A stretch of 64,000 nucleotides of DNA from Candidatus Bathyarchaeota archaeon (GTDB lineage Archaea > Thermoproteota > Bathyarchaeia > Bathyarchaeales > Bathyarchaeaceae): positions 32,001-96,000 of the forward strand of contig CAVOMX010000009.1 in NCBI GenBank assembly GCA_963697165.1, given 5' to 3'. Both the position numbers and the translations under genes were made by a program. Of this stretch, positions 11,857-36,927 are shown piece by piece; the stretch's first letter is position 1, and the number at the start of each line of letters is the position of its first letter. The notes under the pieces are model-generated. The model did no database searches. It was given only the letters and a program-made list of their open reading frames with translations, and was not told where the DNA came from.

Positions 11857-11868
11857 AAAAACTTTTTC

Positions 11869-14934
<3,066 letters not shown>

Positions 14935-14949
14935 TACTCGGTTACACTC

Positions 14950-15018
14950 CAATGTCTGTTTAGCATCGGAAAACACACGTATTTACCTATTTGGCCTATG
15001 TTCGGTTATCATTGCGAG
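14950..15018 (-). other. 5' arm of 23S processing stem with bulge-helix-bulge
   Basis: RNA UUCCGA-UGCU-AAA-CAGACAUUG pairs with the 3' arm as 3-nt bulge/4-bp helix/3-nt bulge. Confidence 0.9.
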
Positions 15019-15129
15019 CAGATAAAAGCTCACTCCACCCTTTGCTCCTAACCATGGTCAGGAGCTGCACGTTATTTTGTGGAGATCTATTCGATCATTT
15101 TTTGATCGCCAACTACCTAGAACCACAGT

Positions 15130-15195
15130 CGGAAAATATAAGCATTGCTGTAATGGGGTGTTTGGTTTAAAAAGAATCAAAATTTTTATCTCCAT
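15130..15195. promoter_or_regulatory. Divergent promoter region for 23S rRNA and RNase P RNA
   Basis: TTATAT on minus strand near 15136-15141; TTTTTAT near 15183-15189, about 30 bp before the rnpB start. Confidence 0.5.
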
Positions 15196-15217
15196 GACCA
15201 TGTAATATTGTTTTTAA

Positions 15218-15528
15218 GGGTTGGTGAGCTGGCGGACGGCTTCGGGTGTCATTGACATCTGAGGAAACTCCGCCCACCACGCTGAACTGTAGCGCTTGTA
15301 AGGGCGCGGGGTGAGAGCCTTGGTTCCTGAGCAGAAACGGAACGTCCAATCGTGGGATGAGGATGATGCGTGTTAAGTCGCTGAGGATGCGGTTGGATGC
15401 GGTGAAACGGCTGTCCTGCAGGGTGAAAGGGCGAATAGGCGTCTGTGATTTCTGCGGGAGACGCGGGTAGCCCGTTTAGCTGAATGCCGTCATGAACAAA
15501 AGGCGGGTTACGTCCAGCACACCAACCC
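15218..15528 (+). ncRNA. rnpB: RNase P RNA
   Basis: P1 GGGTTGGTG/CACCAACCC; CR-I GAGGAAACTCCGCCC; CR-V AACAAAAGGCGGGTTA. Confidence 0.95.
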
Positions 15529-15759
15529 AGAGGAATTGTAAAAGCTATTTGTCCAAAAGAAGGAACTCCAACAAGCAATTATCAACTAATGGATTTAGCT
15601 GAGAGTTTTTCATTCAGCTTTCAAGGATTCTCCTGTTTAATCATGATTTTCCGATTCAACGTCGACCATATGAACTTATAAGCAACTTCGTGGTTGGCAA
15701 TTTCTGAATTAGTGTTTTGGAGAAACTAGTTCTTTCAGAGAATTGGAGGTGCGAAATGA

Positions 15760-15912
15760 ATGTCTTATGGTGGACCAAGAGAGATGCACGATGCAGTCTG
15801 TGCTGAATGCGGACAAAAATGTCAAGTTCCGTTCAAACCAGATTCAAGCAGACCCATCTATTGCCGCGAATGTTACGCTAAACGAAGACCCCCGAGAAGA
15901 GATAGATATTAA
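15760..15912 (+). CDS. CxxC-x17-CxxC domain small protein (50 aa)
   Basis: MSYGGPREMHDAVCAECGQKCQVPFKPDSSRPIYCRECYAKRR; GGAGGTG RBS. Confidence 0.9.
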   Translation: MSYGGPREMHDAVCAECGQKCQVPFKPDSSRPIYCRECYAKRRPPRRDRY

Positions 15913-16220
15913 GCTACAAGCTAGCATCTATTCTCAACATGTGATCTTTTTTTATCACAATATTTTTTTTGTATTTTTATGTTACACAGTCATACGGATG
16001 TAAAAATAGAGTACCGACTAAACAACCAGTAATAAGAAACAGTCTTTTTCATTGTGGACTAGCTTCTAAAATTTCTGTATACATAGTATGCACACTAGAA
16101 TTCTACCAAGTTCAAAGGTCTTACAAACAGAATCAAATAATATACTAGTATCAAATGGAGTAAAGAAAGAGGTCAAAGACTAAAACCAAGAAGATTCAAA
16201 AAGAGTCTAATGGTAACTTA

Positions 16221-16238
16221 ATGAACAAAAGGCGGGTT
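16221..16238 (+). repeat. Direct copy 1 of rnpB 3' end (att-like)
   Basis: ATGAACAAAAGGCGGGTT identical to 15492-15509. Confidence 0.75.
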
Positions 16239-16480
16239 GAATTCTCTAGACCGGACAGAAAGGTCAAGAGTGGCTTTCGTGAACTTGGATTAAAGACCTT
16301 CTTCTTGAGTATTGTTGCAACAAAAGTGACCATCAAGAGTAGTTGTAGAATAAAAGACAATAGAATGAAGTAACAACAAAATAACCAGATATGAAAATAT
16401 TTCCAAAAATTATTTCATGTCCACTCAGTCAATTATATACTTAAAATATAAATATCAATAGCATAGCAGAATTATTTTCT

Positions 16481-17503
16481 GTGCCAAATAAAATCAGTAT
16501 AGTAAGGAATTTTTTGCATTCGCGGGTTCATACTCTCTTGGATGACAGGCCTGTTCATCCGCTGTTTCTTCACTTTGAGTGTACCGATAGGTGTAACATG
16601 AAATGTTCATTTTGTAATGTCTGGAGAAAAGACAGATCGAAGGATGAAGCAACTACCCGAGAGTTTAAGAACCGATTACTTGAATGCTGGGATTTGGGGT
16701 GTTTGTTTTTAGGTATTACAGGCGGAGAACCTCTGGTAAGAGAAGACATAGGGGAATTACTGAAGTTCTCCAGTAGAATTGGCTTAATTACTGGATTGGT
16801 CACAAACGGTATCTTATTGGACAAAAAAATTGATGAAATTTCAAAATACTGTGAGTTTTTTGCGGTGTCATTTGATGTAAATGATAAGCAAACATTCAAC
16901 AGGACTAGAGGCGTTGACGCCTTTGAAAAAGTCAAAAAGAACATACAACGCGCTACACGAATGGGTATCGAAATTAATCTGCTCTCGGTAATAACAAACG
17001 AAACATTTGAATTCATAGACAACACAATCGAGTTCGCAAAATCACTTGAACAACCCATCCATTTCTCCTCTGTTGACAACGTACCAAGAGAATTTGTCGA
17101 GGCATCAGAATCTGAAAATTTGAAGATTAATGAAAGAAACAAAATTTTAGAAAAACTAACTGAAGAAAAAAAGAAATACAAAAAAATCCACTTTGAAAGA
17201 GACTATTTCAATTTCCAATCTATGGGTGGATTTAACAGATTTATTAAATGTTCTTCTGCATCAACCTCAATTTCCCTAAAACCTGACGCGTCTGTTACTT
17301 TACCCTGTCCATTTTTCACCCTAATGTCAATCAAAAAAGAGGAGTCGCTAAAAGAAGGCATGAACTCAAAAAAAGCAAGAAAAATCATCAAAGAATGTGG
17401 CAACTTTGACTTCTGTAAGTATTGTTCAATCAACTGCATGTATGTCGTATCGCTAATCAACCATCCTAGTTTACTGGCCAGGTGGATAAGAGACAAAATC
17501 TAA
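16481..17503 (+). CDS. Radical SAM protein with C-terminal Cys cluster
   Basis: CTDRCNMKCSFC, TGGEP, VTNG; C-terminal PC and CKYCSINC. Confidence 0.9.
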   Translation: MPNKISIVRNFLHSRVHTLLDDRPVHPLFLHFECTDRCNMKCSFCNVWRKDRSKDEATTREFKNRLLECWDLGCLFLGITGGEPLVREDIGELLKFSSRIGLITGLVTNGILLDKKIDEISKYCEFFAVSFDVNDKQTFNRTRGVDAFEKVKKNIQRATRMGIEINLLSVITNETFEFIDNTIEFAKSLEQPIHFSSVDNVPREFVEASESENLKINERNKILEKLTEEKKKYKKIHFERDYFNFQSMGGFNRFIKCSSASTSISLKPDASVTLPCPFFTLMSIKKEESLKEGMNSKKARKIIKECGNFDFCKYCSINCMYVVSLINHPSLLARWIRDKI

Positions 17504-17545
17504 ACGTTCATGACTTGGCCCTGAAGGTACGCTTAACGAAAAATT

Positions 17546-19099
17546 TTACAACACTTGTTTTAAGACGTTGATCATTGTGCTATGAGTTGTTATGATTCTG
17601 GTTCTTACATTTTTTAATAAGTTAATGTCCTCTTGAGTAATATATCCCGTGTAACGAAGCAACAAAACATAGATAGCAACACCTATAGCTGTTCCAAAAA
17701 TTAGTAGAAAAATATTGGATTTAGGTATCAGGAAGAGAAAACCCGAAAAAATGGCGACCGAGAATAGGACTTTATGCAATCCCGAAAACACATCGACCAT
17801 TAATTGTTTTCTTAAGAAAATGGGGATAAGAACAAGAGACGTTATGCCTGTAAGCGTAAGAGAAATCGCAGCCCCATTTAAACCCAAAATTGGAACAAAA
17901 ACGAAGAGACATACGAGATATTGTATAGCACCGATAGCCATTAGCATACCAGATAACTTGGGTTTTCCAATACCTATTAGTATAGAAGTAAGATTGTATC
18001 CGAACATTAGAAGAAATGTTCCGATGATGAGAATTTGAAGAGGAAATATTGCTCCCTGGAATTCACGCCCGTAAATCCCAACAACAATCGGTTCTGCTAA
18101 AGTAAAAATTATTGCCGTCAAAGGTATTCCTAGGATTAGAGGATATTTAACAGAAATTTTCGTATATTTTTCTATCAGCGCATCGTCTTTTGTTGCCCAT
18201 GCTTCTGATATTGATGAAATAATCGGAATAGAGAAAGCAGTCATAGAAAAAAGTACGCTAGAGATTGCATCTGCTACACTATAGATTCCTACATTTGTTA
18301 AATCGAAGAACAGATTAAGTATTGGTATGTCCAAGTTCTTCATTACGATAAACGATATTTTGCCGATTGAAACAGAAAAACCAAAAATAAATATGTGTTT
18401 GAAATTCTTTAAATCCTCCACTAATGCATTTTTTAGGTTTTTAGTTTTGAAAAACTCTATGTTAAACAAAGCTAAATCTTTCAGGTATGTTCTTGTAAAG
18501 TACATGCAAAGCAGCAATTGAGATATGGGCGCAAAAACTATCAAAACGGGTAAAAGCTCAAACGGAAGATTCAGCAGTATAATAGCCATGCCCAATATTG
18601 ATACAACGTAAAAACCGATGGAATTTACTATTGAGAGCTGCTTACTCTTATGCAACGATCCAAGTACCGATGCAAGGGCATCTTTTGTGCCTGAAAACAA
18701 AAACGCGAAAGCAAGTGAAATACCTATTGTTTTTAGTATTGGATCTGACACCTGAAAAGACAGCAGCACTAGGATAAAGAATGCTACAAAGCTTATTGCA
18801 GTGAGATACCTTACATATTTTGAAAAGAATTTAGGAAGATTTGAATCTTCTTTTGTTAAATACCCGCAACCAAAATGAATCACTCCCTCAAATATTCCCC
18901 CAAAAATAAGTGCCCACATGAAATCAAACACTGATTGAGCGCTACTGAATAAACCGTAACCCGCGGGTCCGTATGCCCTGCTAATTTGAATTCCTAATAG
19001 AAGCCAGAAAGCACCACTTAAGATCATGAGGGCTAAAAACCAAGCGCCACCTGAAATTAATCTTCTTGGTCCTTTAATGCCAAGCCCTTCGTCCATCAT
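17546..19099 (-). CDS. MOP-family oligosaccharide flippase (Wzx-like)
   Basis: Many TM segments; GPAGYGLFS and VGIYSVA motifs. Confidence 0.85.
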   Translation of the reverse strand: MMDEGLGIKGPRRLISGGAWFLALMILSGAFWLLLGIQISRAYGPAGYGLFSSAQSVFDFMWALIFGGIFEGVIHFGCGYLTKEDSNLPKFFSKYVRYLTAISFVAFFILVLLSFQVSDPILKTIGISLAFAFLFSGTKDALASVLGSLHKSKQLSIVNSIGFYVVSILGMAIILLNLPFELLPVLIVFAPISQLLLCMYFTRTYLKDLALFNIEFFKTKNLKNALVEDLKNFKHIFIFGFSVSIGKISFIVMKNLDIPILNLFFDLTNVGIYSVADAISSVLFSMTAFSIPIISSISEAWATKDDALIEKYTKISVKYPLILGIPLTAIIFTLAEPIVVGIYGREFQGAIFPLQILIIGTFLLMFGYNLTSILIGIGKPKLSGMLMAIGAIQYLVCLFVFVPILGLNGAAISLTLTGITSLVLIPIFLRKQLMVDVFSGLHKVLFSVAIFSGFLFLIPKSNIFLLIFGTAIGVAIYVLLLRYTGYITQEDINLLKNVRTRIITTHSTMINVLKQVL

Positions 19100-19440
19100 T
19101 CAACATCCTTAAACTGTTTAGATATACTATGCTGGTCCAACGAATCTCCTATTTCCTGTTCTTTACTCTGATATAAAAGTTCAAGGCAAAACAATTGTGG
19201 TAACTGCAAGATCTTTTTGTGTTCGAGTTATATATTTTAATCCCAAATGTTCACGGTGGTTTGTTGGTTTTTTATTTGTTTTTCGTGGAAAACCCGGATA
19301 CCATTTATTCAGTAGAAGCTTTTTGGTTCTAGCTCTGATTGCTTTTCTAACCTCATTAAAATTTCTCTGCTCGTCTCAGATAATACAAAATAAAAGTTAT
19401 TAATTAATCAATATACAAAGGTTCGTTTTTAACTAAATAT

Positions 19441-19469
19441 AAGGTGGGTTACGATCAGAACACCAATCC
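19441..19469 (+). repeat. Degenerate direct copy 2 of rnpB 3' end
   Basis: 24/29 identical to 15500-15528. Confidence 0.7.
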
Positions 19470-19520
19470 ACTATAAATTATTAGTGTTTATGTGAGAAAA
19501 AAGTGATCAACGGTTTATTG

Positions 19521-19697
19521 TTAAGCTCTTATTAGGTAGATTGGTTCTTCTAATCCGCATTCTTTGCTTGAGGATTTCAGAAGTTTGTGATATTCTATTG
19601 CAACTTTAACTCTATCATTTCCTTTCAAGCTAAGAAGCTCCTTTTCCATCAATTCTATCCGTGATTTCAGGTCCTGTCTTCGTTTCTCGTTGGACAA
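19521..19697 (-). CDS. Small hypothetical protein (58 aa)
   Basis: TTG start behind GAGGGG; MSNEKRRQDLKSRIELMEKELL... Confidence 0.5.
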   Translation of the reverse strand: MSNEKRRQDLKSRIELMEKELLSLKGNDRVKVAIEYHKLLKSSSKECGLEEPIYLIRA

Positions 19698-19880
19698 TTC
19701 ATTTCCCCTCAGAAAATAATATCAAATATTAAGATACAATATATATTTGAAATCTAATAAACTTACCGCATTCCAATCCACGACCTCAACTGTACGACAA
19801 TCAATAATTGGAAAGAATACATACTTAGCCATTAGAAAGGTCATTTGATCATTTTCCTCAAAGTTTAGCTTATATATTAA

Positions 19881-20237
19881 ATGTATAGAACAGATAGAAT
19901 GGGCGTCAAAGAGAGGGTTCTTATGGATCAAGAAGAAGCGCTTCAGAGGTTGCAGAAGACCAGAAAAGATAATGAGGATGCATATTTGAAGGCTAAAGCT
20001 TTCTTGGATGGTTTTCGAGCAAGAGGGCAACTGAGCCAGAAGGACTCTGAGTTCCTGTTTCTGATGGAGTTTGTGATTAAGGGCTTCAAAAACCATGGAA
20101 ACGACATCATCACAGCATTCGAAAACCAAGTAAGATATACAGAAGCAGTCAACACATTACACCTCAAAGTTAATGATTTAGAACATGAAATACGCCAACT
20201 AAGAATGACCCTAGACAAAATGTACCAAGACAAATAA
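19881..20237 (+). CDS. Coiled-coil hypothetical protein
   Basis: Intact ORF with heptad C-terminus; true start may be 19899. Confidence 0.65.
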   Translation: MYRTDRMGVKERVLMDQEEALQRLQKTRKDNEDAYLKAKAFLDGFRARGQLSQKDSEFLFLMEFVIKGFKNHGNDIITAFENQVRYTEAVNTLHLKVNDLEHEIRQLRMTLDKMYQDK

Positions 20238-20334
20238 GCTCAGTTAAAACATCAACTCAGAAACAGCAGTTTTTTCAGGTTCGAGAACAGTTTTATCCTC
20301 TAATCGACGTCAGATTGTCTGTTGGTGGATTCGG

Positions 20335-21484
20335 ATGGATTTCGAACTAACCGAGAAGCATCGGAAACTAAAAGATTCTGTAAGAACATTCTGCGAAAAA
20401 GAGTTTGATTCAGACTATGCTTTGGAGCTGGACAGAAAAGAGGAGTTTCCAATAGAACTTTACAGGAAGGCTGCAAAACAGCGATTCTCTAGCTTATTCA
20501 TTCCAGAAAAGTATGGGGCGGAGGGAACAGGGGTATCTTGCGGTTTGTTTAGCCATGGAGGAAATGTGCAGGGCAGACTCGTCCTTTGGGTTGGCATGCA
20601 TGATTGGAACCTTCGGAAGTGACCTGCTTATTCTCAAAGGAACAGATGAACAGAAAAAATGTTACTTACCGCCACTTTGTCGTGGAGACAGCGTATCCTC
20701 CGCAGCATTTACGGAGCCAACTCGCGGAACAGACATATCAACAGTTGATACCAAGGCAGTTAAGCATGGAAACGAGTGGCAGATAAATGGAACAAAAACG
20801 CTCATAACAAACGCGCCCATAGCCGACTTCTTCATAGTTTTGTGTCAAACAGGAAGCAATGAGGCTCCACGCAGGAGCCAGTCATTATTCATTGTAGATA
20901 AAGAGGCAAAGGGATTAGCGGTTACGAAATTGTCGAATAAGATGGGAATAAGGTGTGTAACAACTGGGAAAGTTTCATTTAAAGACGTGAGAGTAAACGA
21001 AAACAGTCTCCTAGGCGAACAAGATAACGGTTTTAGCCACTCAATGGACTTCTTCACAATAAGCAGAACAGCCATCGCGGCTCAGGCTGTAGGAACGGCA
21101 CAGGGAGCACTTGAAATTGCCCTAAAGCATGCACAAAAAAGAGAATCTGCCGGTCAGCCCATAATACGGTTTCAACAGATAGGAGCCAAACTAGCCCAAG
21201 TGGCATCCGAAATCGAAGCGGCAAGACTGTTGACCTACAAGGCAGCATGGACCATCGACCAAAACAAAGTGGATTCTATGTTGACGTCTATGGCTAAGCT
21301 GGTTGCAAGCAACGTTGCGGTGAGGGCAACGGACGCTGCGATTCAGACTTTGGGTGGTTACGGGTATCTGGGCGATTACAAGGTTGAAAGAGCCTACAGG
21401 GACGCGAAAGTAACCGAAATTTATGAAGGAACATCCGAAATTCAGAGATTAGCCATCCTAAAGCAGCTAATCAAGACAGGTTGA
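20335..21484 (+). CDS. Acyl-CoA dehydrogenase (frameshift near 20515)
   Basis: AFTEP, NGTKTLITN, KMGIR, LGGYGY, EIYEGTSEIQR. Confidence 0.93.
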
Positions 21485-21516
21485 AATCTTAAATTCCTCA
21501 AACAACATCACCCTTC

Positions 21517-22308
21517 TTGGATCTCCTACCCATGTCCAAAGCTTACGGGACAATAAAGCTCAAGAAAAAACAGCATATAGCCTGGATAATCTTGGATAGA
21601 CCAGACAAGCTTAACGCCATAAACGCAGTCATGCTAGAGGAGCTGTCAGAGGCGATAGACAACATTGAGGAAGACGCGAACGTTAGATGTGTCGTAATCG
21701 AGGGAGAGGGAGAAAAGGCATTTAGCGCCGGAGCCGACCTCGCTGAACTTAAAAAACTCACGTCAGAGACTGCTACAGAATTCTCGGTTAAGGGACAACA
21801 GGTTTTCTGTAAGCTGGAAGGTCTATCTAAGCCTGTCATAGCAGCGATTCGCGGGTATGCTCTGGGTGGCGGACTTGAGCTAGCATTAGCTTGTGACTTC
21901 AGAATAGCATCAGACCGTGCAGAGTTGGGGTGTCCTGAAATAAAATTGGGGTTGATTCCGGCATGGGGAGGAACCGAGAGGCTACCGTTGGCTGTTGGGT
22001 TGTCTAATGCTAAACGGCTAATAATGCTTGGTGATAAAGTACAAGCCGATGAAGCGTACAAGATGGGTTTGGTGGATAAGGTCGTTCCCTCAAAGGAGTT
22101 GGAGGCTGAGGTGGAGGTGTTAGCTCAAAGACTATGTGAATGTGCTCGGGGAGCACTGAAATATACAAAGTGTGCCGTAAATTCTGGAACCCAACGTTCA
22201 CTTGATTCTGGATTAAAGAATGAAATCGAGTTTTTTGCTCTGCTGTTTTCTGTGAAAGAGACCAGAAAGAAGATAGAAGATTTTGGATCTCAGAGAAACA
22301 AAAAATAG
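21517..22308 (+). CDS. Enoyl-CoA hydratase/isomerase (crotonase)
   Basis: AFSAGADL, GYALGGGLELALACD, PEIKLGLIPAWGG. Confidence 0.93.
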   Translation: MDLLPMSKAYGTIKLKKKQHIAWIILDRPDKLNAINAVMLEELSEAIDNIEEDANVRCVVIEGEGEKAFSAGADLAELKKLTSETATEFSVKGQQVFCKLEGLSKPVIAAIRGYALGGGLELALACDFRIASDRAELGCPEIKLGLIPAWGGTERLPLAVGLSNAKRLIMLGDKVQADEAYKMGLVDKVVPSKELEAEVEVLAQRLCECARGALKYTKCAVNSGTQRSLDSGLKNEIEFFALLFSVKETRKKIEDFGSQRNKK

Positions 22309-22559
22309 GGAGCCTGCTAAGTCAGATTGACAAAGATTTGCGAAATTCTTTAGCTCATTGTCTGTTTATTTTAGAGGGTATCACATTAATTCACTATGAC
22401 AATTTGACTCTTCAAAACAAACATGAAATAATAGTTGAAGACCTATGGACAAAAGGAAGAAAACACAGTCTAATAGCTCAATGTCTTATTCATGTAATTG
22501 CTGATTGGTTTTCTGAAACTTAATATTATCAAATGAAATATCAACACAACAAGAAGTAG

Positions 22560-22594
22560 CCTCTTCGTGAAATGCTTCCAGAAACTATATTTTC
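22560..22594 (+). repeat. Cassette-boundary repeat copy A
   Basis: CCTCTTCGTGAAATGCTTCCAGAAACTATATTTTC. Confidence 0.85.
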
Positions 22595-22630
22595 TCTTGG
22601 GATAAATCTTAAGAAGGAGAAGGAAAAAAA

Positions 22631-23200
22631 TCAATAACGATAAAATCGGCGTCTTTCTTGTCGGATATATTCCCTAACTAACGGCAAAGATATTTCCTCA
22701 GTATCTCTAGCTTCTTGTTGTATTGAAGAACCTCGATAAATTCTCTGTTGAGATTTAATTTCAATGGCGTGCAATATTTCATGGAACAGAGTCTCAAGAT
22801 ACATTTCTCTGTCTCTTAATTGAGGCATTCTCAACATAATAAAATATTCAGTGTTTTCTAACTTGTCTAAAAACAACTTTTTTCTTTCTGCACCTTGCCA
22901 AAAATTGGCTATATTTATCAAATTATTTGTTGGAATATAATACCCCATAGCATCTTTGTAACTTGATATTTCACTTTCGCTTCCATGAGACTCATGAATT
23001 TCAACCGTTTCAGAAGATTCAAATAATCCTTCCTTAACCATTCTTTTCAATATGATTTTTCCTTTTTGTATAGACGTATAGAGAAGTTTCCATTCTCTTT
23101 CACTTGTTTCTAACACACACAATTCAAGTTCAGAAAATGGGTAATATTGTTTCAAAAAAGTAACATAACCATCAATTTCACCCTTTTCTAAAAACTTCAC
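22631..23200 (-). CDS. Hypothetical protein with HEXXH zincin motif
   Basis: ETLFHEILHAIE..E; GGGTGA RBS. Confidence 0.65.
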   Translation of the reverse strand: MKFLEKGEIDGYVTFLKQYYPFSELELCVLETSEREWKLLYTSIQKGKIILKRMVKEGLFESSETVEIHESHGSESEISSYKDAMGYYIPTNNLINIANFWQGAERKKLFLDKLENTEYFIMLRMPQLRDREMYLETLFHEILHAIEIKSQQRIYRGSSIQQEARDTEEISLPLVREYIRQERRRFYRY

Positions 23201-23282
23201 TCTTTCACCCTCTTAATTCGCTAAACTGGTTGATAATAAAAATTTTTGCTAACTGTAAAGAAGAGTCATGTTTGCAAATAAC

Positions 23283-23324
23283 AAGGCGGGTTACGACCCA
23301 GCAAGCCCGCCTCTTCGTGAAAAG
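23283..23324 (+). repeat. Degenerate copy 3 of rnpB 3' end adjoining left half of boundary repeat (copy B)
   Basis: AAGGCGGGTTACG..CCAGCA, then CCTCTTCGTGAAAAG at 23310. Confidence 0.7.
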
Positions 23325-23583
23325 TGAAGGACTGGTTTAGATTTTGTGTAAAGCAAGTGGTTTAAGTGTCGGGATATTGTCGTCCAATAAATTTTTATTC
23401 GGTATTGAATAGAGAAGAGCTTGAAGTGAAGTTGTATGGCTAAATGTGGAGTAGAACATAAAAAATGTTCATCGTCTATCCATGGGCACTGTTCATATGA
23501 GGAGCATGATAGCAATACCAAGCATTACTGTGGTAAGTGTTACACCGAATTCTAATGCACATGCACAGAAAAACCTTCTTTTT

Positions 23584-23674
23584 TTCCAGAAACTATATTT
23601 TCCTACGAAGATTCTTTTAGTTACTTCGTGAATTTTCTTTCTCATAATAAAAAGGTTTTAGGGTTCAATCTTTT
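23584..23674 (+). repeat. Boundary repeat copy C plus ~35-bp accessory motif shared with 35178-35213
   Basis: TTCCAGAAACTATATTTTCCTACGAAGA..CTTCGTGAA..TCTCATAATAAA. Confidence 0.75.
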
Positions 23675-23878
23675 GCAATCAATTAAGTTCATTGAAGCTG
23701 CAGTTTTTCTTTGCCCCTAATCCGTTAATACATATGCCTTAATTCGACTACACACCTCTTTTGTCCATATATATAATTTAATAAGACGTAGTTTGAGTCC
23801 AATGGTCGAGCGAAAAAGTGACGAGAACAACATTAACTATAGGAAATAACTGTTTGCTTTATTTCAGTTATATATAGT

Positions 23879-23947
23879 AATTTATACTTGTCAAAGAAAC
23901 CTCATTCTTGTTTACTGTTAACAGAAACTTTGTTTTCCAACAAAGAG
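23879..23947 (+). repeat. Boundary repeat copy D (long variant)
   Basis: 59/69 identical to 33487-33555. Confidence 0.85.
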
Positions 23948-24566
23948 TTTCCATGATCACATAAATAGACATAATGATTCTGTCAAAAAGAAGCGGATTC
24001 TGTGCGATTTGTCGAAGAGCTGGAGGAAAACATAAAAATGGGGTTGTATCCAGAAGAAGGGTTTGCTGAGGCTTTAGCACAGTTGTTGATGAGTAAGGTC
24101 ACATTCAATCTTTTTCAAGGGGGAAAGAATGTGTGCTCCTGTGCTTGCCTTTTCAGCCCCATTCTATTCTTTTTGGTAGTTCCAAAAAAGGGGGAAGATT
24201 TTTTTGTGTATTGTCTTGTTTGAATAAATTTACATCATTCCAAAGGATTAATCAAGTTTTTTTTTTTGTTCCAATCTGCTGTGAGTTGAATCGTGCTCAT
24301 TTTCTATTTCAGAGACTTCTTTTCTAATCGCAAGTTTTGTTTCTTTCTCTGGAAAGCCTTCTTCTGGTCCGCAATAGACAAGCTTAAAATCTGGTAACCC
24401 GATGATGCCAAACCCCACTCTTACGTTTTCGACGTCTCATTGACAACTCCCCCAAATAACCAAATCATACTCATTATTCTCCTTTCCACTTTAACCAATC
24501 AAACCTCCTTCAAATCTACAAATTTCTAACCGATTACTCCCACAAAAAAAGGGGAGGGAAATTGGT

Positions 24567-27185
24567 TTATTTTCGTTTCTTTAGTGCCCAGAAGCTGACT
24601 ACGCCAATTATGCTGGCAATTGCGACAGCTGCAATGATGGCTACTTCAGTGGTGATCAAAGGTGTTTCAGTGTGGCTCTGGTGAAGGTGACGGTTCAGGC
24701 AGGTTCGAAGGTGCTGGCGTTGGTGAAGGTTCTGGTGAAGGTGATGGGCTGGTGTAGGTGTTCTGGTGAGGTGATGGCTCAGGTGATGGTTCAGGTTCTA
24801 TTGTTCCACCTGCTGTTGCAGCTGGTGTTACGGCAAAGGATGTTGCTGCGCTTGAAGGCCAATAGGATTCAGATCCCGCAAACTTGGCGATAACTTTGTA
24901 AATTCCCTCGGTCGATGGGACATACATGTGCGCATAGTTGCCATCTGAATCAGATGTGACAGTAGTTATCCATTCTTCAGTGCCATCTGGTTTAACCACA
25001 AACAGATTCACTGGAACACCATCTGGGTTGGCGGATTGTTCAGCAGTGTTGCATTCTGCATATTAAGATAGTCCATCCACTCGCTCATGTCCTCATCAGA
25101 AACTGCTGGTAGTACCTGGCCTGAGCAGGAGATTGATCCAATAACATTGCCTTTTATCAGCACTGTATGCGCCACTTAGCGACGACATCATTCTGGTATT
25201 GTTACTGAAGTTGAGGTTTGGCCTTTGCCTAAGCAATAGAGGTTTCCATCGTAATCTCCGGTACCTATGACATAACCATTAGCAGCAGAAGAGGGGCGAA
25301 GTCCACCGTTTAAAGTAAATATAGTGTCTCCTGTAGTAGCGTCAATACATACGAGCATTCCAAACCTTGAAATAGGGTTGATTTTATACCCAGACGAATA
25401 GCCTGCGTAAACATAGATTTTACCATCTACCATGACCATGCCACTGAACGATAGGGCACTGCATTATTGGGGTACTCAGTTGAAGGAATAGGCTTACTCC
25501 GCCATACCTCATGTCCATCTGCCAAACTGTAAGCGCGCATTGTACCGTCCGGGAACATAAGCATACAAGTTATCGTTGTCATTGGTCTCAGCAAGTAAAC
25601 GGTCCATGTTGTAGCCCACGTAGAGTCGCAGAAGCTGTCACTTTCCCACAATTCAAAGCGCCAGTAAGCATGGAGTAGCATTTGAACGTTGATTCAGTTG
25701 GATCAAAGACAATAAAGTTGTCCACGCCATATAAACTGAATTGCTGGTTAGCTAGAGTCGGATAGTTCAGGGTAAGGTTCCATAGTGAGGTACCGTTTTC
25801 TGCGCTGTAACCCCAGATACTGGTTGGGTGCGGCTTTACCACAACCGTAGACGCATCTGTTGATATTCCGAAGAGAGATTGGGGACTGGCTACGCGATGT
25901 AGCTAGTTGATTCTGGCAGTGGGCGTTGTCCATTCAATTCCTGTCGGCCAATTATGACCACCAGTGCGTGTCCGTAAATGTTACAGTGACAACTTTCGAC
26001 ATGTTCCATGCTAAACAAGTTGTACGATCGTTGCTGTTCCATAGGCAAGATCGGTACCGTCAATAAGATTGAAGCACTTGCAGTAGCGTTAGCGATTGAC
26101 CGCACTAGTGTTCCAGTAAAGGGATCATAGTAATTCCACGTACTGCCAGAGGTTCCAAATAGGTACGGTGTATGGTATTGTCCATAGGAGCTCTCGAGAA
26201 CTACGTTCGAAGGATCAAAACATGCTTTGAGCATATGGGTTTCCAGGTAAGTGGATACCGCACAGTAATCGAGCCATCCACTGTGTACAATACTTCTCCA
26301 GTTGCTAAATCAATGCATTCAAACTGTGCCAGTATTCGCGAATATTTATCGAATACTTTGCCTTCCATGATTACAGCACTTGGATACTAGAACCTTGAGG
26401 ATCCATAGCTAAGGCTGCCATAATCTCCGCCTATAAGGCCTCCTGATCTAAGCGGTTGCTTCCAAACTATGTGGCCAGTGTTAGGTCCTGAACCATAGGG
26501 CTGCCAAATACGACAAGTAGGCACCGTTAACCGTAGCCGCCAGTTGACTGGCACTGCCAAGCCAGTCGCCTGAGATTTGGTTCCATTCTCTGTTGTTGCT
26601 GTTTATTGGGTAGCTCCAGAAAACGTTTGGGTTCGGCAGTGCTGACCACGGATAACCATTAAGCAAACCAGCCAGTACTCTTCAGTCTGAACTGTAAAGT
26701 AGGCATGTATTACTAGTGCATCCTATATATTGTACGGTTCCTGAACCGTCAGTTAAGTTCTGTGCAGGCATCGTGAACGATACACTCCAGTTACCCGCCA
26801 TGATTAGGCTCATAAAAGAAGTATATAGCGCCAAGTGACTGCGTTTGTCCTGGATCATAATTGACCTGTTCCGTCTACCGGCATGAACGTGTCTTTTGTT
26901 CCGTCAGGTCTTACGAACGTCACCGTTACTCCCCTATAGCCGTCATAAGTATGGCTGATAAGCATAGTTTGTAGGTATAGGATAGATGAATAGGTTTACA
27001 GTTGCTGTTTGGCCGACTCCGACAAGTCTTGGTGCAACGTCGATGTAACCTGTAGTTTTCTCTGGCTGAGGAACACCAATTTGAGCCTGCACTGGAATAT
27101 TTGCTAGCAACGAAAAAGCAGATGTTATTAAAATTGCCAAAATGATTGATGCTGTTAATTTTGTTTTGTTTATTGAAATTTGCAT
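24567..27185 (-). CDS. Large secreted PQQ-like beta-propeller surface protein with Pro/Ser linker and C-terminal TM (many frameshifts; pseudogene or assembly error)
   Basis: Signal peptide; Trp-containing blade ends (DGHEVW, ENGTSLW); FAGSESYWPSS; PEPSPSP repeats; TM plus KKRK tail. Confidence 0.75.
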
Positions 27186-27424
27186 TGTTTTTTCTCCTTT
27201 TTGAGTTTTTTCCATCTTTACATTTTATTGTTTTTGGGAAAAAGAATTAAACTAAAAAATACTTGATCTTCCCCCTAGAATGCTATTTTGTAACAAAGAA
27301 GTATTTAACATTAAGTGTCAGCCCATGACTGACAACTTCTGAATCATTAATACCTTCGAAATAAGATGGGAAAAAACAAATTGTCTCTGTGCTTAGGTTT
27401 CGACTAATGTTTAGCAAAGGTAAA

Positions 27425-27492
27425 CCTCTTCGTGAAAAGCTTCCAGAAACTTTATTTTCCAACGAGCAGTCCAAGGCATAACTTGAATAGAA
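27425..27492 (+). repeat. Boundary repeat copy E
   Basis: 27427-27492 is 59/66 identical to 31391-31456. Confidence 0.9.
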
Positions 27493-27500
27493 TTGGGTTT

Positions 27501-27774
27501 TTATGCACTTGCCCTGAAATACATTCGATTATTAACAACTTTTCTTGAAATTTTTCCTTTACTTACTAAATCCTGAAGAACCGAAACAAAATTTGCGACC
27601 ATGAACGTAGCCATTTTGGAAGTCCCTGGCACATCAAAATCTACATTAAAACTTGTCGACCCCATTATTTCATCGTCAGTAAAGGCTTTTTCCTTGACGC
27701 TTCTTCAAGAAAGAGATAATCTCATCTTCCAGCTTAATAGAGACCCTTACAAATTTCTCTTTGTCTATGGGCAT
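27501..27774 (-). CDS. Small winged-helix-like protein (~90 aa, one frameshift)
   Basis: GGAGTGA RBS; MPIDKEKF..EIISFLKK / KAFTDDEI..LQDLVSKGKISRKVVNNRMYF. Confidence 0.55.
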
Positions 27775-27972
27775 AGATATCACTCCATCATAAATCTATG
27801 AAACAAGAGCTTGAAATTGTTTATGTAACTCAAATCATAAGCATAACTAATAGTTTAAGCCAAACGTTTGTCGTAATTCGCTCGCATCCAGAAACTTGTA
27901 TCTATTATTCACAACTTGTTTATACATAATTGTCTGAATTACCTAATATCTTGAGGTTCAGGCGTTTATTCA

Positions 27973-30478
27973 ATGAGTAGTGACATATCAATTGAAGCTT
28001 TTATTCAACATCTTGAAGAATTAAAAAAATTAACCGAATTTGAGAGATTTCGCAAATTTCTAAGGCTATTTTTAATTGGATTCTTCATAGGTAGAGAAAA
28101 CAAAAAAAGAATAAAAGTATTAGCCTTAGAACTAAATAATATACTCCAACAAAAAAGTTGTGATTTGGAAAAACATGTATCAAATTCTTTAGGTATGAGC
28201 ACATATCTAATTTCATCAGAAAAAAAAGGATTGTTAGATTCAATAGGCGTTTTAATAAATGGGCTTAAACAATTTTCAAACTCTAAAGTTCCGAATGTCG
28301 AATATATTAAAGAAATTGAGGAAAAGCTGACAACACTAAAAGAGTCAGTACTTGACTACAATAGCTCCTTCATTAGGCAAAGAAAAAGGGATTACCGTTA
28401 TCTCTGGAGTAATGGGGAGTTTACTCTTGATGAGGAACAAATTACATCAATTGTAACTGACGATAAACATAATTTGGTGGTAGCTGCTGCAGGTTCAGGC
28501 AAAACAGAGTGGTACCAAATCACAAGAATTGCATACATAGTAAAAAGACAACCTGACTTTAGTCCACAAGAAAGAATTTTGGCAATTGCTTATCAAAACA
28601 AAGCTAGTGGTGAAATTGGAAGAAGACTAAAAGATAGATATGAAATTACGAACGTTAATGTAAGTACCTTTCACAAGTTAGGTAAAGGTATTTTAGAAGA
28701 AGCAAGAAGCAAATATCGCCACTCTGATATAATTGATAATAATAAAAAACGAAGAACCATAGATAACCTTTTTAGACAAAAAATTGAAACTAACCAAAAA
28801 TACTACAATTTGTTTCTAAGTTATGTTAAAACTCTCCATGATAAAGAAAAAAAGGAAACTGGAGAGGCAAACGGTATTTCTCTAGAATACGCTATAAAAC
28901 AAGCCTATGTATCCATAGATAGAACCCAGGTAAATAGCAGAGCTGAAAAAGAGATTATAGACTTCTTTCTGATTCACAAGCTCAATGGAAAAAAAATCAT
29001 AGTAGAATATGAACCTGATGTGGGTGGATTTAGACCTGATTTTTACTTGCCACAATATGATTTATACATTGAACATTGGGCTTTAAATAAAAATGGAGAA
29101 GTACCAGAATGGTTCAATCAATCCTCTGATGAATATAAGAAATCAATGGATATGAAAAGGACATGGTTTAAAGCTCACAATAAATTATTTGTGGAAACCT
29201 TTACACACGAGTATAAGAAGAATAAGTCTGACAATTTTATTGAATTATTGAAGAAAAGAGTCATAGATGCACTAGAAACTAGAAGCAATCAAGATTTTGA
29301 ATTTAGTCTTAAAAGTTATGATGAAATTGTTGAAATTGCCTGGAACTCTTATCTGTACTCCAGTAGATGATTTAATTAACTTCATAACATCTGCAAAAAC
29401 CTATGGTTTGTCTCCAATAAACGTAAAGGGAAGACTAGAGAAGAGAAAATGGAGTGCTAAACAGATAGCTTTTGGGAATCTTGTTTTGCCAATATTTACA
29501 GAATATGAAGAGTTATTGCACTTGGAAGATAAAATCGATTTTGAGGATATGATAAATAAAGCAACAGCTGAATTAGAGAACAATCAGAACTTGCGTGCTA
29601 ATGTGTATGACCATATTCTAATTGATGAATATCAAGATATTAGTGCGCAAAGATACAACCTAATCAAAGTCATGATGGAAAGAAATCCTAATTGTAAACT
29701 ATTTTGTGTTGGAGATGACTGGCAAAGTATCATGGGTTTTTCAGGCTCTAACATAAATTATTTTGTAAGGTTTGCAGAATATTTTGAAGACCCAGCAATA
29801 ACCATAATCTCAACTAACTATCGAAGTAACCGTACAATTGTTGATGCAGGTGCAGATTTGATAAAGGACAATACAAGTTGTCAGGTACAAAAACCAACTA
29901 AAGCAAATAACAGTCAAACTAAATCAATTAAAGTGCTTAGGTCTCCTCACAAGAAAGATTATGAATATAAATATCACCAGCAAATTGCTGAGGACTGTAT
30001 AAATCGCATAGTTGAATATCTTGAAAATGGTTATGCACCAACAGATATACTTGTGCTCACAAGATGCATGCGAACTAGGACCCGATTTGGATACAGATAC
30101 CTACCAACAATTCAGATAATCAAAGAATTGGCAGAAGTAAACAATTTAGATGTAATTCACCAAAATTGGGAGAGTCCAAGAGGCATTAGATTACTTACTG
30201 CACATAGCAGCAAGGGTTTAGAAGCAAAAGTAGTTTTTATTATTAATGGTACCAAGGATATTTTTGGTTTCCCATGTGAAATAGAAGATTCTAATATTTA
30301 TGAGCTAGCAAGAACAAACTATCCGCCTCAAGATAATCTAGAGGAAGAACGAAGGCTATTCTATGTAGCAATGACTCGTGCAAAGGATGAACTTTATATT
30401 TACACTTGGGAACCAGCAATGAGTAATTTTCTAACTGAAATTGAAGAGCATACTAAAGAAATCCGACTAAATTACTGA
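27973..30478 (+). CDS. UvrD/helicase IV-like SF1 helicase with inserted PD-(D/E)XK-like nuclease domain (frameshift near 29355)
   Basis: AAAGSGKT, ILIDEYQD, VGDDWQSI, NYRS, SKGLE, EERRLFYVAMTRAK; insert SRAE..RPDFYL..IEHW. Confidence 0.88.
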
Positions 30479-30773
30479 ATAATTATACCCGTGCAAAACC
30501 TTTTACGCCTCCAAATTAGATGGTTTTTTGTTAAATAGATAAACCCAAGTTTATATTCATCCTTTTTCAGTATCGCTTCTGAAGATAAAATTTCATCTAT
30601 TTTCTGCTTTACTTTGTCTTCTTGATTTATTCCGAATAAAGGACCCAAAACATTTCCCTTCTGTTCTTAAGACCAATTTAGCTATAACATTTCTCCTAAT
30701 TGATTGTTAGAGCGTGAATTTTCCGAAAAAAGTTAAAGCAACTTAACCGAAAAAAGGAACATGAGAGATAATC

Positions 30774-31373
30774 TTGACTTCTAATGATTTGGTCAGATAC
30801 AAAATATTGGAAATACTTTTCAACAAAGCCTCGTTGAGAGGAACAGACTGGAATGTTAAACGTAAGGAAATGATAGAATCATTACCATTTGAGGAGAAGC
30901 AAATTGACTTCAACTTTTTTTATCTTTTCGACAAAGGTCTAGCTAAAATGTTCAAACACACATCTAAAAACTGGGAAACCGCAACAATCACAAGCAAAGG
31001 CATAGACGTTATCGAGCATAAACAGAATTTTGTTGAAGAATTACCCTTTATTCAGGTTGCGATTCAAGAAATCAATGCACCTATATACGGTAATGCGATT
31101 CAAGCTGTCAATTCCACAATTACCTTTAATCAACAAGTGACGGATGCCTTCAAACAAACCTATCAAACACTTGAAACTAAGAAAGATTTGACACCCGAAC
31201 AGAAAACAGAGATAAAGAAAAACTTGATTATTCTAGAAGAGGAACTAAAAAGCAAAGACAAAGACGCGGGTAAAATCCAAAAGTTGTGGAAAAGAATCAA
31301 GAAAAATGCTAGTTGGATAGCTCCAATACTTGTTAATATTGTCCTAAAAGGATTGGAGATTTCAATAGAATAA
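30774..31373 (+). CDS. Hypothetical protein with wHTH-like N-terminus and helical C-terminus
   Basis: Intact ORF; YLFDKGL..ITSKGID wing-like pattern. Confidence 0.65.
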   Translation: MTSNDLVRYKILEILFNKASLRGTDWNVKRKEMIESLPFEEKQIDFNFFYLFDKGLAKMFKHTSKNWETATITSKGIDVIEHKQNFVEELPFIQVAIQEINAPIYGNAIQAVNSTITFNQQVTDAFKQTYQTLETKKDLTPEQKTEIKKNLIILEEELKSKDKDAGKIQKLWKRIKKNASWIAPILVNIVLKGLEISIE

Positions 31374-31390
31374 TCATGCAAACAGTAAAA

Positions 31391-31456
31391 TCTTCGTGAA
31401 ATGCTTCCAGAAACTTTATTTTCCTACGAGCAGTTCAAGGGACAATTTAAATAGAA
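31391..31456 (+). repeat. Boundary repeat copy F
   Basis: TCTTCGTGAAATGCTTCCAGAAACTTTATTTTCCTACGAGCAG... Confidence 0.9.
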
Positions 31457-31531
31457 ATAGCAAGAAACAAAAAGAACCATAAGCAGAAAAAATGATGAAG
31501 TTGGAAACCAAACGTTGATAATTACAGAAAC

Positions 31532-31561
31532 AAATCACATTCAAAGACTTCCTAACAGAAC
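31532..31561 (+). repeat. 30-bp direct repeat, left copy
   Basis: 28/30 identical to 32270-32299. Confidence 0.85.
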
Positions 31562-31720
31562 AGATTTGATGAACATAGAACCTACGTTTTTGATGATGTT
31601 TATTCTATAAAATTATTAATATTCACCACAAATGTTATCTAAAGGTATATTTGATAACGTAATCGGGGGAGAGATTACTTTCTGTAATTTTCCTTTCAAA
31701 AAAGATAGAATGGAGGTGAA

Positions 31721-32176
31721 GTGAATTTGAAGTCTCGTTCTGTGAATATTGCTTGGAAAATACTGATGATTCCTAACCTTGTTTTTGTAGTCTTTGGTCT
31801 TGCATTTGTGTTAATTCCAGATGCCATTTTGGGTAGTGGCTTTGAATTGTATACTGGTCAAACTTGGAGCAATCTTGTTTCCACAAGTCCTGAAATCACT
31901 GATTTCATTTTGTTAACTGCAGGCAGAATGTTTGGTGTTCATATTCTTGTTCTCACAACTCTAGCCATCGCTATAACCCTTAAAGGTTTTAGAAATGGAG
32001 AAAGCTGGTCATGGTATGCCTTTATTGCAATCAGTTTTGGTATGATTTTTGACACAGTTGCGGTATTTATCATGGGGGAAATACCTGTTGTAGTGATAGA
32101 CATAATCATGCTATTGCTCATGTACATAGCACTAGGAATTTCTGCAAAGGATATGCTCAGTAAAAAATCCACCTGA
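31721..32176 (+). CDS. Four-TM membrane protein
   Basis: GGAGGTGA RBS; hydrophobic; GESWSWY motif. Confidence 0.75.
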   Translation: MNLKSRSVNIAWKILMIPNLVFVVFGLAFVLIPDAILGSGFELYTGQTWSNLVSTSPEITDFILLTAGRMFGVHILVLTTLAIAITLKGFRNGESWSWYAFIAISFGMIFDTVAVFIMGEIPVVVIDIIMLLLMYIALGISAKDMLSKKST

Positions 32177-32269
32177 GCATGCTACCTTCTCTAAAACCCA
32201 AACTCCTCTTTTTTTCTTAATGAAACCCAATAACATTAGGTTATTATGTGTACAAAGTTGGATGATGCA

Positions 32270-32299
32270 AAATCATATTCAAAGACTTCCCAACAGAAC
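32270..32299 (+). repeat. 30-bp direct repeat, right copy
   Basis: AAATCATATTCAAAGACTTCCCAACAGAAC. Confidence 0.85.
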
Positions 32300-32872
32300 G
32301 TAATTAATAATCACAAAGCTTTAATGTATATTCCAGCGTATTATAATTGCTGAGCCATCAAGGGGACAAATCAAAACATACCTCTAGCTCAAGCGTTTTT
32401 GAACATAAAATTTCATTATTTTGTAAGATAGATATGGATTGTTTTTTAGTAAAGTTTATTTTCTTATATTTCATTTATGATGAAGAGTAGTATCCCAATC
32501 TGAACTGGTTCTATCTCCCCCTGATGACTCAGTTTCATTATGATTGGGATACTGCTTTCCTTCTCAACATTACATCTTTGTTGATAATAGAACATTCTTT
32601 TATAACATTTCTAAACCTTAACCACAAATATTATTACGGTAAATACCTGATAAAACAATTGGGGGAGTCCACAAATCCAATTCTGGGTTAGTCATTGTAA
32701 CGGTTAATTATCTGTTAGAAACACTACATTCTGAAGTCTGTCACTAACTTTGGTGGCACACAACCACTTTTCAACTCAAACGAAACAAAACTCAGTTCTC
32801 TGCTTCAGAGACCAGAAGCAAACGGAGACACTCTCTAATCAGAGTTAATAAAGGAAGAAGGGAGGTGAAAGA

Positions 32873-33361
32873 ATGAATATGAAAATTTTAGGTGTTTTCG
32901 TTAGTTTGTTTACTTTAGCTTTGTTAACGATTCCAGTAATGGCTGCACCAGCAACAAAAATTGAAGGGGTTACATTGACTAGAGTCACTACACCACCCGT
33001 TCAGGATCCTGGCTTTCCACGGTTGGTAAGTCATGATACCATATCACATGGAAGAGGCACAACTACAGGTACAGCTACTCTAACCATAGGACAAGACATT
33101 CATGATGGAGATTGGGATAGTGAATGGATTTCCGTGGTTAATTTGAAAAAAGATCCAGTTGAGATGGTAATTAGCGCTACGGTCAAATTGACTTTCACAG
33201 GAGGCACGTTTGAGGGTACGAGCCATAGAAAGATAATAGGGTACCCACCTGGACCTAGTTCAATTATCGAAACCCATATGGTACTTCAGGGTACTGGAGA
33301 TTTTAGGGGACAAACACTAAAACATTCAGGTGGTACTTACTATCTAATAATGCCCAAATAA
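32873..33361 (+). CDS. Secreted beta-rich hypothetical protein
   Basis: GGAGGTGA RBS; signal peptide ending IPVMA; LQGTGDF motif. Confidence 0.75.
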   Translation: MNMKILGVFVSLFTLALLTIPVMAAPATKIEGVTLTRVTTPPVQDPGFPRLVSHDTISHGRGTTTGTATLTIGQDIHDGDWDSEWISVVNLKKDPVEMVISATVKLTFTGGTFEGTSHRKIIGYPPGPSSIIETHMVLQGTGDFRGQTLKHSGGTYYLIMPK

Positions 33362-33486
33362 CCAAAATAAAGAACCGTAACACCACATTTCCTCTTTTTT
33401 CTATCCAGAAACAGTAACATCAGATTTTATTGGTTTGTGGGTAAATCGAATTTTCTAAACAGTGCATTTTTGCAGTTAACTAAGTC

Positions 33487-33584
33487 AATGTATACTTATC
33501 AAAGAAATCTCCTTCTGGTATACTATTAACAGAAACTTTATTTTCCCACGAAGAGCCTCAGGCAACCTCTTCGTGAAAAGCTTC
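33487..33584 (+). repeat. Boundary repeat copy G (long variant followed by a left half)
   Basis: ..CTATTAACAGAAACTTTATTTTCCCACGAAGAG-10 bp-CCTCTTCGTGAAAAGCTTC. Confidence 0.9.
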
Positions 33585-33646
33585 TTTCTTCTGAAGGCAG
33601 ATTTTATATAGAAAAAACAAGAAATCCTATTCAAGGAAAGAGTCTC

Positions 33647-34927: not shown

Positions 34928-35086
34928 TAATGCATTTTATGTTACCTTTTAACACGGGGTGATAGAGATTCTTAGTCAAATAGCAGTAAGTTAGTTAAAT
35001 AAAACGTTACCTTTTTTATGCTATTTCAATATGAAAAACCAATGTTTACTTATTGTTTTGATAGTATGTTTTCCCTCACATAAAGT

Positions 35087-35250
35087 GGGTTTCTATTAAC
35101 ACATCTCAGCGAAAAGCTTCCAGAAAATTTATTTTCCAACAACGAGCCTATATGCAGTTTGTAGCTGAAAAGAAAAGTCTCATAATAAAGAAGGCTTTTT
35201 AGGGTAATCTTTTCTCCCTACTTGCATGGTTTGGCATTCTATTAACAGAA
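35087..35250 (+). repeat. Boundary repeat copies H and I plus accessory motif
   Basis: GGGTTTCTATTAACA..GAAAAGCTTCCAGAAAATTTATTTTCCAAC; TCTCATAATAAA at 35178; TTCTATTAACAGAA at 35237. Confidence 0.8.
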
Positions 35251-35315
35251 GTGCTATTTACTTACTAAAAAAAGTTAGTTATGTCAGAATAGCAGTAGTT
35301 TGGCAGGGATGAAAT

Positions 35316-36482: not shown

Positions 36483-36919
36483 AAAAATTGGATAAGCCGT
36501 TATTATTGAAAAGTGCCAGAACATTAAGGATAACATATAGTCTGCCGATAAGCAGAACCTCAAAGTTCTGGGAGGGACTTAAAGAGGGAAAAGTTTACGC
36601 TACAACATGTAAAAAGTGTGGAAAACTGCATTTTCCTCCTGTGGCGGATTGTGGAGCATGCGGTTCATCTGAGGTAGAGTGGATTGAGTTGAATGGGGAG
36701 GGCGAGGTTGTGACTTTTACTCAGGTTTTTGTTAAGCCAGCTAGCTTCTCAGAGGAACCCGCATACATTGTTGCGATTGCTCGGCTCAAGGAGGGCGTTA
36801 AGGCGTTGGCTTGGCTGACTGGCGTTGAAAGAGAAGATGTGAAGGTGGGAATGAAGGTCAAGCTTGCAGCAAAGGTTTTCTCTGACAAAAGAGTTGCCTA
36901 CGAGTTTGTTCCAGTCTAG
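36479..36919 (+). CDS. DUF35 Zn-ribbon OB-fold thiolase partner
   Basis: FWEGLKEGK..CKKCG..FPP..CGACG; overlaps the thiolase stop. Confidence 0.9.
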   Translation: MKKLDKPLLLKSARTLRITYSLPISRTSKFWEGLKEGKVYATTCKKCGKLHFPPVADCGACGSSEVEWIELNGEGEVVTFTQVFVKPASFSEEPAYIVAIARLKEGVKALAWLTGVEREDVKVGMKVKLAAKVFSDKRVAYEFVPV

Positions 36920-36927
36920 AAGAAAGG

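Follow-up and report, generated by a model that had tools for sequence, protein, structure and literature searches.

Islands at tRNA and tmRNA genes, as described for Islander (PMC4383910, drawn on in part, like the other papers cited here by accession), rebuild the end of their target, leave a displaced fragment of it at the far end and can form tandem arrays. Here, we describe a locus of similar layout at rnpB, the gene for RNase P RNA, in 64,000 nucleotides of a genome of Candidatus Bathyarchaeota archaeon (Bathyarchaeales; assembly GCA_963697165.1, contig CAVOMX010000009.1, positions 32,001 to 96,000; hereafter the window). Comparison of genomes indicates that the 3' tail of rnpB is an integration site for small mobile elements across this archaeal order. 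Unlike in the tRNA and tmRNA islands, the target is RNase P RNA, which is single-copy, the block common to gene and copies stops precisely at helix P1 of that RNA, and the units in the window carry no integrase.

Three further systems are close to what we find. In the suicidal integrases of the SSV family, from Sulfolobales and Thermococcales (PMC7253208, PMC8371274), the attachment (att) site lies inside the integrase frame and the gene is split on integration. The rnpB-linked integrases described below share this layout and, as in that family, the site is translated in different frames among relatives. Yet, the targets inventoried in the relevant parts of those papers are tRNA genes, the other integrases having intergenic or protein-coding targets. 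Here the target is rnpB, the N-terminal piece has only 8-20 codons, and the likeness is one of layout, our integrase tree containing no SSV or pTN3 sequence. Cis-mobilizable elements (CIMEs) formed in site-specific accretion (PMC5704250) likewise keep attL and attR without an integrase and are stacked with related elements at the end of a gene. The units that we call class II differ from them in a right arm that cannot restore the target, in forming single-gene arrays away from rnpB, and in having no known conjugative helper. Finally, archaeal integrons and clusters of attC sites lacking integron-integrases (CALINs; PMC9668308) also have same-strand sites between unrelated accessory genes with no integrase nearby. 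They are set apart by folded attC structures and IntI, neither of which we found for class II; class II sites look like double-stranded att-like hybrids with a core taken from rnpB.

No integration at RNase P or rnpB is named in the literature that we searched, subscription papers lying outside the search; an earlier note on this DNA, written from its letters alone, had also known of no documented archaeal case. The term "RNase P" has no occurrence in the main text of PMC8371274, PMC6563490 (including four supplements), PMC7253208, PMC4383910, PMC10541130, PMC5704250 and PMC13626063, as far as the parts drawn on extend. In the last of these, 13.5% of the RNA targets are non-coding RNAs, which the passages considered do not name, and its supplements may list rnpB. 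PMC2705793 is, in the part considered, unrelated to integration at rnpB. The feature is real and its mechanism known, and the rnpB target was not found in the literature searched.

Results

The tail of rnpB and its downstream copies

The two ends of rnpB pair in helix P1 (15218-15232 is complementary to 15514-15528). The target is of type RF00373, neither a tRNA nor a tmRNA gene, and the sole tRNA gene of the window lies 12 kb off. The features at stake are the following (classes I and II are defined below):

15218-15528, + strand: RNase P RNA gene rnpB (Rfam RF00373 at 15224-15522, 207.7 bits)
15500-15528, + strand: putative attachment region, the 29 bases common to rnpB and its displaced copies, with a common core at about 15500-15509
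16221-16268, + strand: copy 1, a candidate left junction; 8 rnpB bases upstream of the core and the core itself (16221-16238), then a right arm called R2 (16239-16268)
19430-19469, + strand: copy 2, probable displaced original end of rnpB (outer attR), with a decayed class II left arm
23245-23325, + strand: copy 3, composite class II site of arm, core and start of a second repeat (hidden Markov model, HMM, E 6.2e-8)

Copy 1 is identical to the tail at 18 of 18 positions. Copy 2 matches 24 of 29 (19441-19469), its final base being the last base of P1. Copy 3 has 13 exact bases (23283-23295), followed by CCAGCA shifted one base out of register. All three lie on the + strand in non-coding DNA. 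We scanned the genome with the 46-nt tail, ungapped and on both strands (3,983,016 positions), and copies 1, 2 and 3 rank first, second and equal third among the non-self matches (scores 18, 15 and 13); one further match of score 13 occurs on contig C10. The chance of one match in a given 8 kb of one strand is p = 0.002, which excludes chance similarity. The earlier note's description of three same-strand, non-coding copies therefore stands in its coordinates and identities, and such matches are not common genome-wide. A fourth, strongly decayed copy lies at about 35082-35105 (composite-site HMM, E 2.6e-14), and related sites occur on contigs C12 and C16 of the same genome. The locus thus has an intact rnpB with a displaced 3' fragment in direct orientation, as islands in structural RNA genes do.

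On the other side of rnpB, a 23S rRNA gene runs divergently (11868-15224). The Rfam matches of the window are LSU, rnpB and the one tRNA; there is none for 16S.

Integration at rnpB across the order

A pattern of the 25-base tail, with 3 mismatches allowed, matches 178 of the 301 genomes of the order; 41 of these 178 have more than one match, although in a few cases the extra match may come from another rnpB gene in a mixed bin (there are two in G282). The reversed pattern matches 0 of 301. Among 11 genus relatives taken without selection, displaced downstream copies are present in 5 and absent in 6, and in 3 of the 11 a PF00589 gene begins just behind rnpB in the same direction. In forty further loci, nearly all chosen because they have several copies, rnpB is followed by an integrase in G041, G056, G282 and G292, and displaced copies are so in G056 and G128. 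G056 and G014 have true stacks, in which every copy is followed by an integrase. The content downstream of rnpB thus varies among relatives and includes integrases in some. With the copies and the empty allele described below, this agrees with the earlier proposal that rnpB is repeatedly used as an integration site.

The limits of the shared block are sharp. When 21 short copies from 18 rnpB loci were compared with their own rnpB, each position inside 15500-15528 matched in 12 to 21 of the 21, and positions outside mostly in 2 to 8, with an abrupt edge on both sides. This comparison sets aside 4 of the 25 downstream copies in relatives, which are long duplicates. The right edge coincides with the end of P1, and so, by the rule for tRNA islands (PMC4383910), with what an element would have to bring to rebuild the RNA. 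Most displaced copies bear a conserved left arm, which defines class I; in the GTDB collection the class I site occurs at 23 loci, 22 in Bathyarchaeia and 1 in Thermoproteota.

The long duplicates (L049:2258, L070:5001, L072:5034, L078:4790) extend at least 25 bases further into rnpB, and 91 in G020. They perhaps reflect a second crossover point or another integrase.

Integrases with the site inside the frame

Among the rnpB-linked integrases, six have frames open from inside the core for 304-317 codons and one for 153, while two are broken; as background, 78 of 255 frames are open for 30 codons. In G014 the first start codon comes only at residue 183. The missing start seems to lie on the other side of the site. 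At 19 of 27 class I arm sites an upstream ATG stands in one fixed frame, at variable distance, and gives a conserved KLL-x-x-KAGY start; the ATG is in other or mixed frames at 4 sites and missing at 4. (Some of these 27 loci are probably the same DNA as other loci examined, so that the counts are not additive.) The integrases thus look split, with the att site within the reading frame, as in the SSV-family suicidal integrases. In G056, G128 and G282 the start piece and the catalytic piece share a frame. Two observations weigh against this interpretation: the pieces are out of frame in G014, G041, G292 and L160, and three of the integrases have an ATG of their own at residue 23-24. Frame mismatches between N- and C-terminal pieces are reported in hybrid elements (PMC7253208, in the part cited).

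In the tree, eight of the nine rnpB-linked integrases cluster together (90/90, not starred). Their neighbours are zinc-ribbon relatives, and one of these lies next to a tRNA gene. A Rep_1-like protein is encoded by two elements (Atlas 0.96; 17-64% of members have the family), which suggests that the elements are small rolling-circle replicons. No free circle with a joined site was found: 0 viral contigs carry the site under two patterns, and it is joined in 0 of 30 viral loci of related integrases.

Two side observations concern this family. A viral contig (L179:1-1017) encodes a related integrase (34%) whose frame is open through the end of a tRNA gene, placing the same family at a tRNA target. 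At five loci of G001, G014, G024 and G292 (L037:19239, L037:13992, L045:10442, L050:15967, L068:2999), the site is closely followed by only the last 25-70 integrase codons, remnants that would fit a recurrent internal deletion sparing the C-terminal tail.

The island at rnpB

Between rnpB and copy 2 lie two blocks, A and B, both low in GC:

15529-16220: accessory block A, 35% GC
15760-15912, + strand: CxxC-x17-CxxC gene (PF23477, TIGR04272), within block A
16481-17503, + strand: radical SAM protein (PF04055), cargo of cassette B
17546-19099, - strand: polysaccharide flippase-like membrane protein (PF13440), cargo of cassette B

The CxxC gene stands beside rnpB in 1 of the 11 genus relatives (G018, 85.6% DNA identity). 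The radical SAM gene is absent there in all 11, and the flippase has no close homologue beside their rnpB. Copy 2 directly precedes core genes, and in G013 and G019 the outer copies hold that position. The empty allele is seen on one contig, of run X4, where 15526 is followed by 19497, with 28 bases on the short side at a likeness threshold of 88. Contigs of the radical SAM/flippase block are present in all four runs, so that the filled and empty states both occur in nature. From synteny and the empty allele it follows that copy 2 is the displaced original end of rnpB and that the island spans 15529-19469.

Copy 1 lacks the 3' part of rnpB and carries a conserved foreign right arm; it therefore marks the start of the radical SAM/flippase block and not the end of the CxxC block. 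When scored against three right arms from G019, the 32 bases after its core rank second of 3752 GGGTT sites, the first being another class II site. Its R2 shares 13 consecutive identical bases with the site of L111, and class II sites of G019, contig C16 and L111 have R2-like right arms. That copy 1 is the left junction (attL) of the cassette is moderately supported by these comparisons. The cassette (16239-19440) would then keep attL and attR and have neither integrase nor transfer genes, as CIMEs do.

Several points count against this arrangement. The HMM of R2 alone scores copy 1 at only E 13, and copy 1 shares only 8 upstream rnpB bases, where in four long duplicates elsewhere 20-25 of 25 agree. 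Taken alone, the class II left arm is weak at copy 2 (rank 225 of 3749) and at copy 3 (281 of 3749), even if a stricter pattern matches the genome at 3 places, the proximal part of the copy 2 arm among them. On contig C9, neither PF00589, nor an HMM of six rnpB-linked integrases, nor nhmmer found an integrase or a relic of one.

As to the cargo, the radical SAM protein falls below the NCBIfam cut-off for viperin (59 of 180 bits), and a search for a defence role returned generic radical SAM and UvrD matches only. The 50-aa product of the CxxC gene has five homologues in the genome (contigs C9, C13, C14, C18 and C24), up to 95% identical.

A second class of sites

Class II sites have a 38-base left arm of their own, present in 9 copies in G019. 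On contig C22 of that genome, three such sites follow one another at a spacing of 870 bp, each interval holding a single gene; R2 is the right arm of the first two, an rnpB-like stretch that of the last. A circle carrying arm, core and R2 and inserting repeatedly into one site would yield exactly that order. The same circle inserting once into a copy of the rnpB end would yield copy 1 (rnpB left part, core, R2) and copy 2 (arm, core, rnpB 3' part). Since R2 cannot rebuild P1, a class II unit should survive only in a displaced copy.

Class II may be new as a class of sites. Two facts temper the scheme: no recombinase gene was found in any class II unit examined, and the class is known from few genomes (G000, G019, G013 and some metagenome contigs), all of them kin. 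Outside G000 and G019, R2 matches 16 of 201 genomes at 3 mismatches, about as many as its reversed control, so that a wider range is not shown. By eye, R2 matches no tRNA tail among 40 ARAGORN calls. At L122:1501-1650 (contig C16 of G000), an apparent displaced 3' half of a tRNA lies less than 60 bases behind a class II site with R2.

Copy 3 and the insert in the neighbouring operon

19521-22308: core genes, namely a 58-aa open reading frame (ORF; - strand), a 118-aa ORF, acyl-CoA dehydrogenase and enoyl-CoA hydratase (crotonase) (Pfam), syntenic in genus relatives, 43% GC
22313-35297: separate insert of 12,985 bp, 36% GC, between crotonase and thiolase, bounded by a 6-base direct repeat
22560-22599, 23584-23620, 23921-23949, 27426-27473, 31391-31434, 33529-33584 and 35045-35156, + strand: second repeat family, about 44 bp with imperfect inverted ends, at seven places, the last holding the fourth decayed rnpB core
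22631-23200, - strand: 189-aa metallopeptidase-like gene adjoining copy 3 (look-alikes 0.92 by features)
35340-38133, + strand: thiolase and 3-hydroxyacyl-CoA dehydrogenase, the rest of the core operon (NCBIfam)

Acyl-CoA dehydrogenase and crotonase belong to a conserved operon that lies beside rnpB in most members of the genus. Thiolase and 3-hydroxyacyl-CoA dehydrogenase are near rnpB in 9 of the 11 relatives, and crotonase abuts thiolase in all 8 that have both, and likewise in G019. In our genome the two are separated by the insert. On a contig of run X4, 22312 is directly followed by 35298, the same boundaries are indicated by loose ends in X1 and X7, and the empty site has no rnpB-like core; parts of the insert without contig cover in the four runs carry no weight in this reading.

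Copy 3 and the fourth decayed core both run into the second repeat, which is found in 3 of 60 genomes of the family. The composite of arm, core and second repeat recurs on contig C16, twice in G019, in 2 of 10 metagenome loci and on contigs of X1 and X7. We read these composites as probable junctions of related cassettes.

Copy 3 (23283-23315) forms a short inverted repeat with the directly following sequence (8-bp stem, z -1.5), and good folding is otherwise confined to 33520-33590 (z -3.9). The second repeat also stands at an orthologous position ahead of an epimerase gene (L059:5900-6040, L105, L108). In G019 a class II arm comes before it, in L108 a class I arm, and L105 has neither; the position may be a secondary site used by both classes.

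Discussion

We think it probable that these observations have a common explanation. The last 29 bases of rnpB would be the attB of a family of tyrosine integrases in the order. Small elements would carry the rnpB 3' end inside their integrase frame, so that on integration the RNA is made whole again, the integrase is cut off from its start codon and the former end of rnpB is displaced downstream; the layout comes from comparison, the reaction itself being our deduction. The window would hold leftovers without integrase. Copy 2 would be the displaced original end, and copies 1 and 2 the left and right junctions of a class II unit carrying the radical SAM and flippase genes. This unit presumably landed in a displaced copy of the rnpB end behind the CxxC block, a block common to G018, because insertion in rnpB itself would break the gene. 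Copy 3 and the fourth decayed copy would be class II sites inside an unrelated 13-kb insert of the neighbouring fatty-acid operon.

Which enzyme works class II sites bears on the first alternative, which keeps the rest of this explanation and makes these sites dif-like, worked by a host recombinase of Xer type instead of the rnpB integrases. No class II unit carries an integrase, and the sites can be read in the 11-6-11 scheme described for dif in the part of PMC2958812 drawn on; 2-6 of their 11 pairs are palindromic, and rnpB itself scores 6. Yet, among seven recombinases tested against NCBIfam, including 3 of the 10 PF00589 matches of the genome, none reaches the cut-off of archaeal XerA (best 100.6 of 220 bits). 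Moreover, the most Xer-like one occurs in only 2 of 25 genus genomes and, with one query, not in G019, and all sites of an array share one orientation. We regard this alternative as improbable. The most likely enzyme is the rnpB integrase family acting in trans, a best guess made because the core is shared, and one with roughly equal chances of being right or wrong. Several of the 10 PF00589 matches belong to that family.

A stack of three islands at rnpB, each closed by its own displaced 3' end, was the reading of the earlier note. The same strand, the downstream position and the low GC of blocks A and B fit it, and G056 and G014 show that true stacks exist. Against it stand the make-up of copy 1 described above, the core nature of the genes between copies 2 and 3, and an empty allele that resumes behind copy 2 and not behind copy 3. 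This reading, which we hold to be very unlikely, is largely refuted by synteny and the two empty alleles. Repeated insertion survives from that proposal, whereas only copies 1 and 2 belong to the rnpB island. Nor does each copy close a gene block: the conserved foreign arm of copy 1 opens one, and copy 3, assigned by the note to the end of an acyl-CoA dehydrogenase/crotonase/zincin block, lies in the separate insert between crotonase and thiolase. As the first two of those genes belong to the core operon, copy 3 closes no rnpB island.

The copies might instead be seams of tandem duplication or of microhomology-driven rearrangement beside rnpB, made without a site-specific enzyme. This would suit a contig without an integrase and the long duplicates that reach further into the gene (4 of 25). 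It is at odds with block ends that are fixed in 21 copies, with conserved foreign arms on both sides and with integrases fused to the site in several families, and we give it very little credence. Least credible of all is an integron (CALIN) with the repeats as attC sites. Both the 13-kb insert and G019 do have same-strand repeats between genes that are unrelated. Yet, folding is no better for the composite sites than for their shuffled versions (four full sites, z -0.57 to +0.29, no attC covariance model having been run), and none of the seven recombinases reaches the IntI cut-off TIGR02249 (best 62.1 of 265 bits).

One might speculate further, on the same sequence comparisons, about a system of two tiers, a tentative idea that is rather less likely to hold than to fail. 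Autonomous rolling-circle elements with split integrases would seed copies of the tail. An undescribed class of cassettes without integrase, with a site unable to repair the RNA, would insert safely into these copies and into their own junctions, and would build up arrays like those of integrons at any place in the chromosome, with neither attC nor IntI. Class II sites suggest how such cassettes exploit an essential target without breaking it. Since island finders look at tRNA and tmRNA genes, an rnpB target used across an order is missed. The tail precisely marks small mobile elements in an archaeal group that is among the most abundant, and a conserved single-copy site with its integrase family could serve as a genetic tool for cultured Bathyarchaeia. 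It is also a testable case of the tail of an essential ribozyme doubling as protein-coding DNA on an element.

Other genes of the operon and the insert

The acyl-CoA dehydrogenase gene lies in two frames (20335-21484), where a single 382-aa ORF is found in relatives. Indels appear at 20516 and 20525 in contigs of run X1, and the split is either a frameshift or an assembly error. Within the 13-kb insert, a UvrD-like helicase occupies two overlapping frames (27973-30478), with generic GajB-type matches only. The insert also holds a gene for a large secreted or surface protein in many pieces (24500-27215, - strand, 45% GC), and similar genes stand beside class II sites on C16 (L093) and in G019 (L060, L153).

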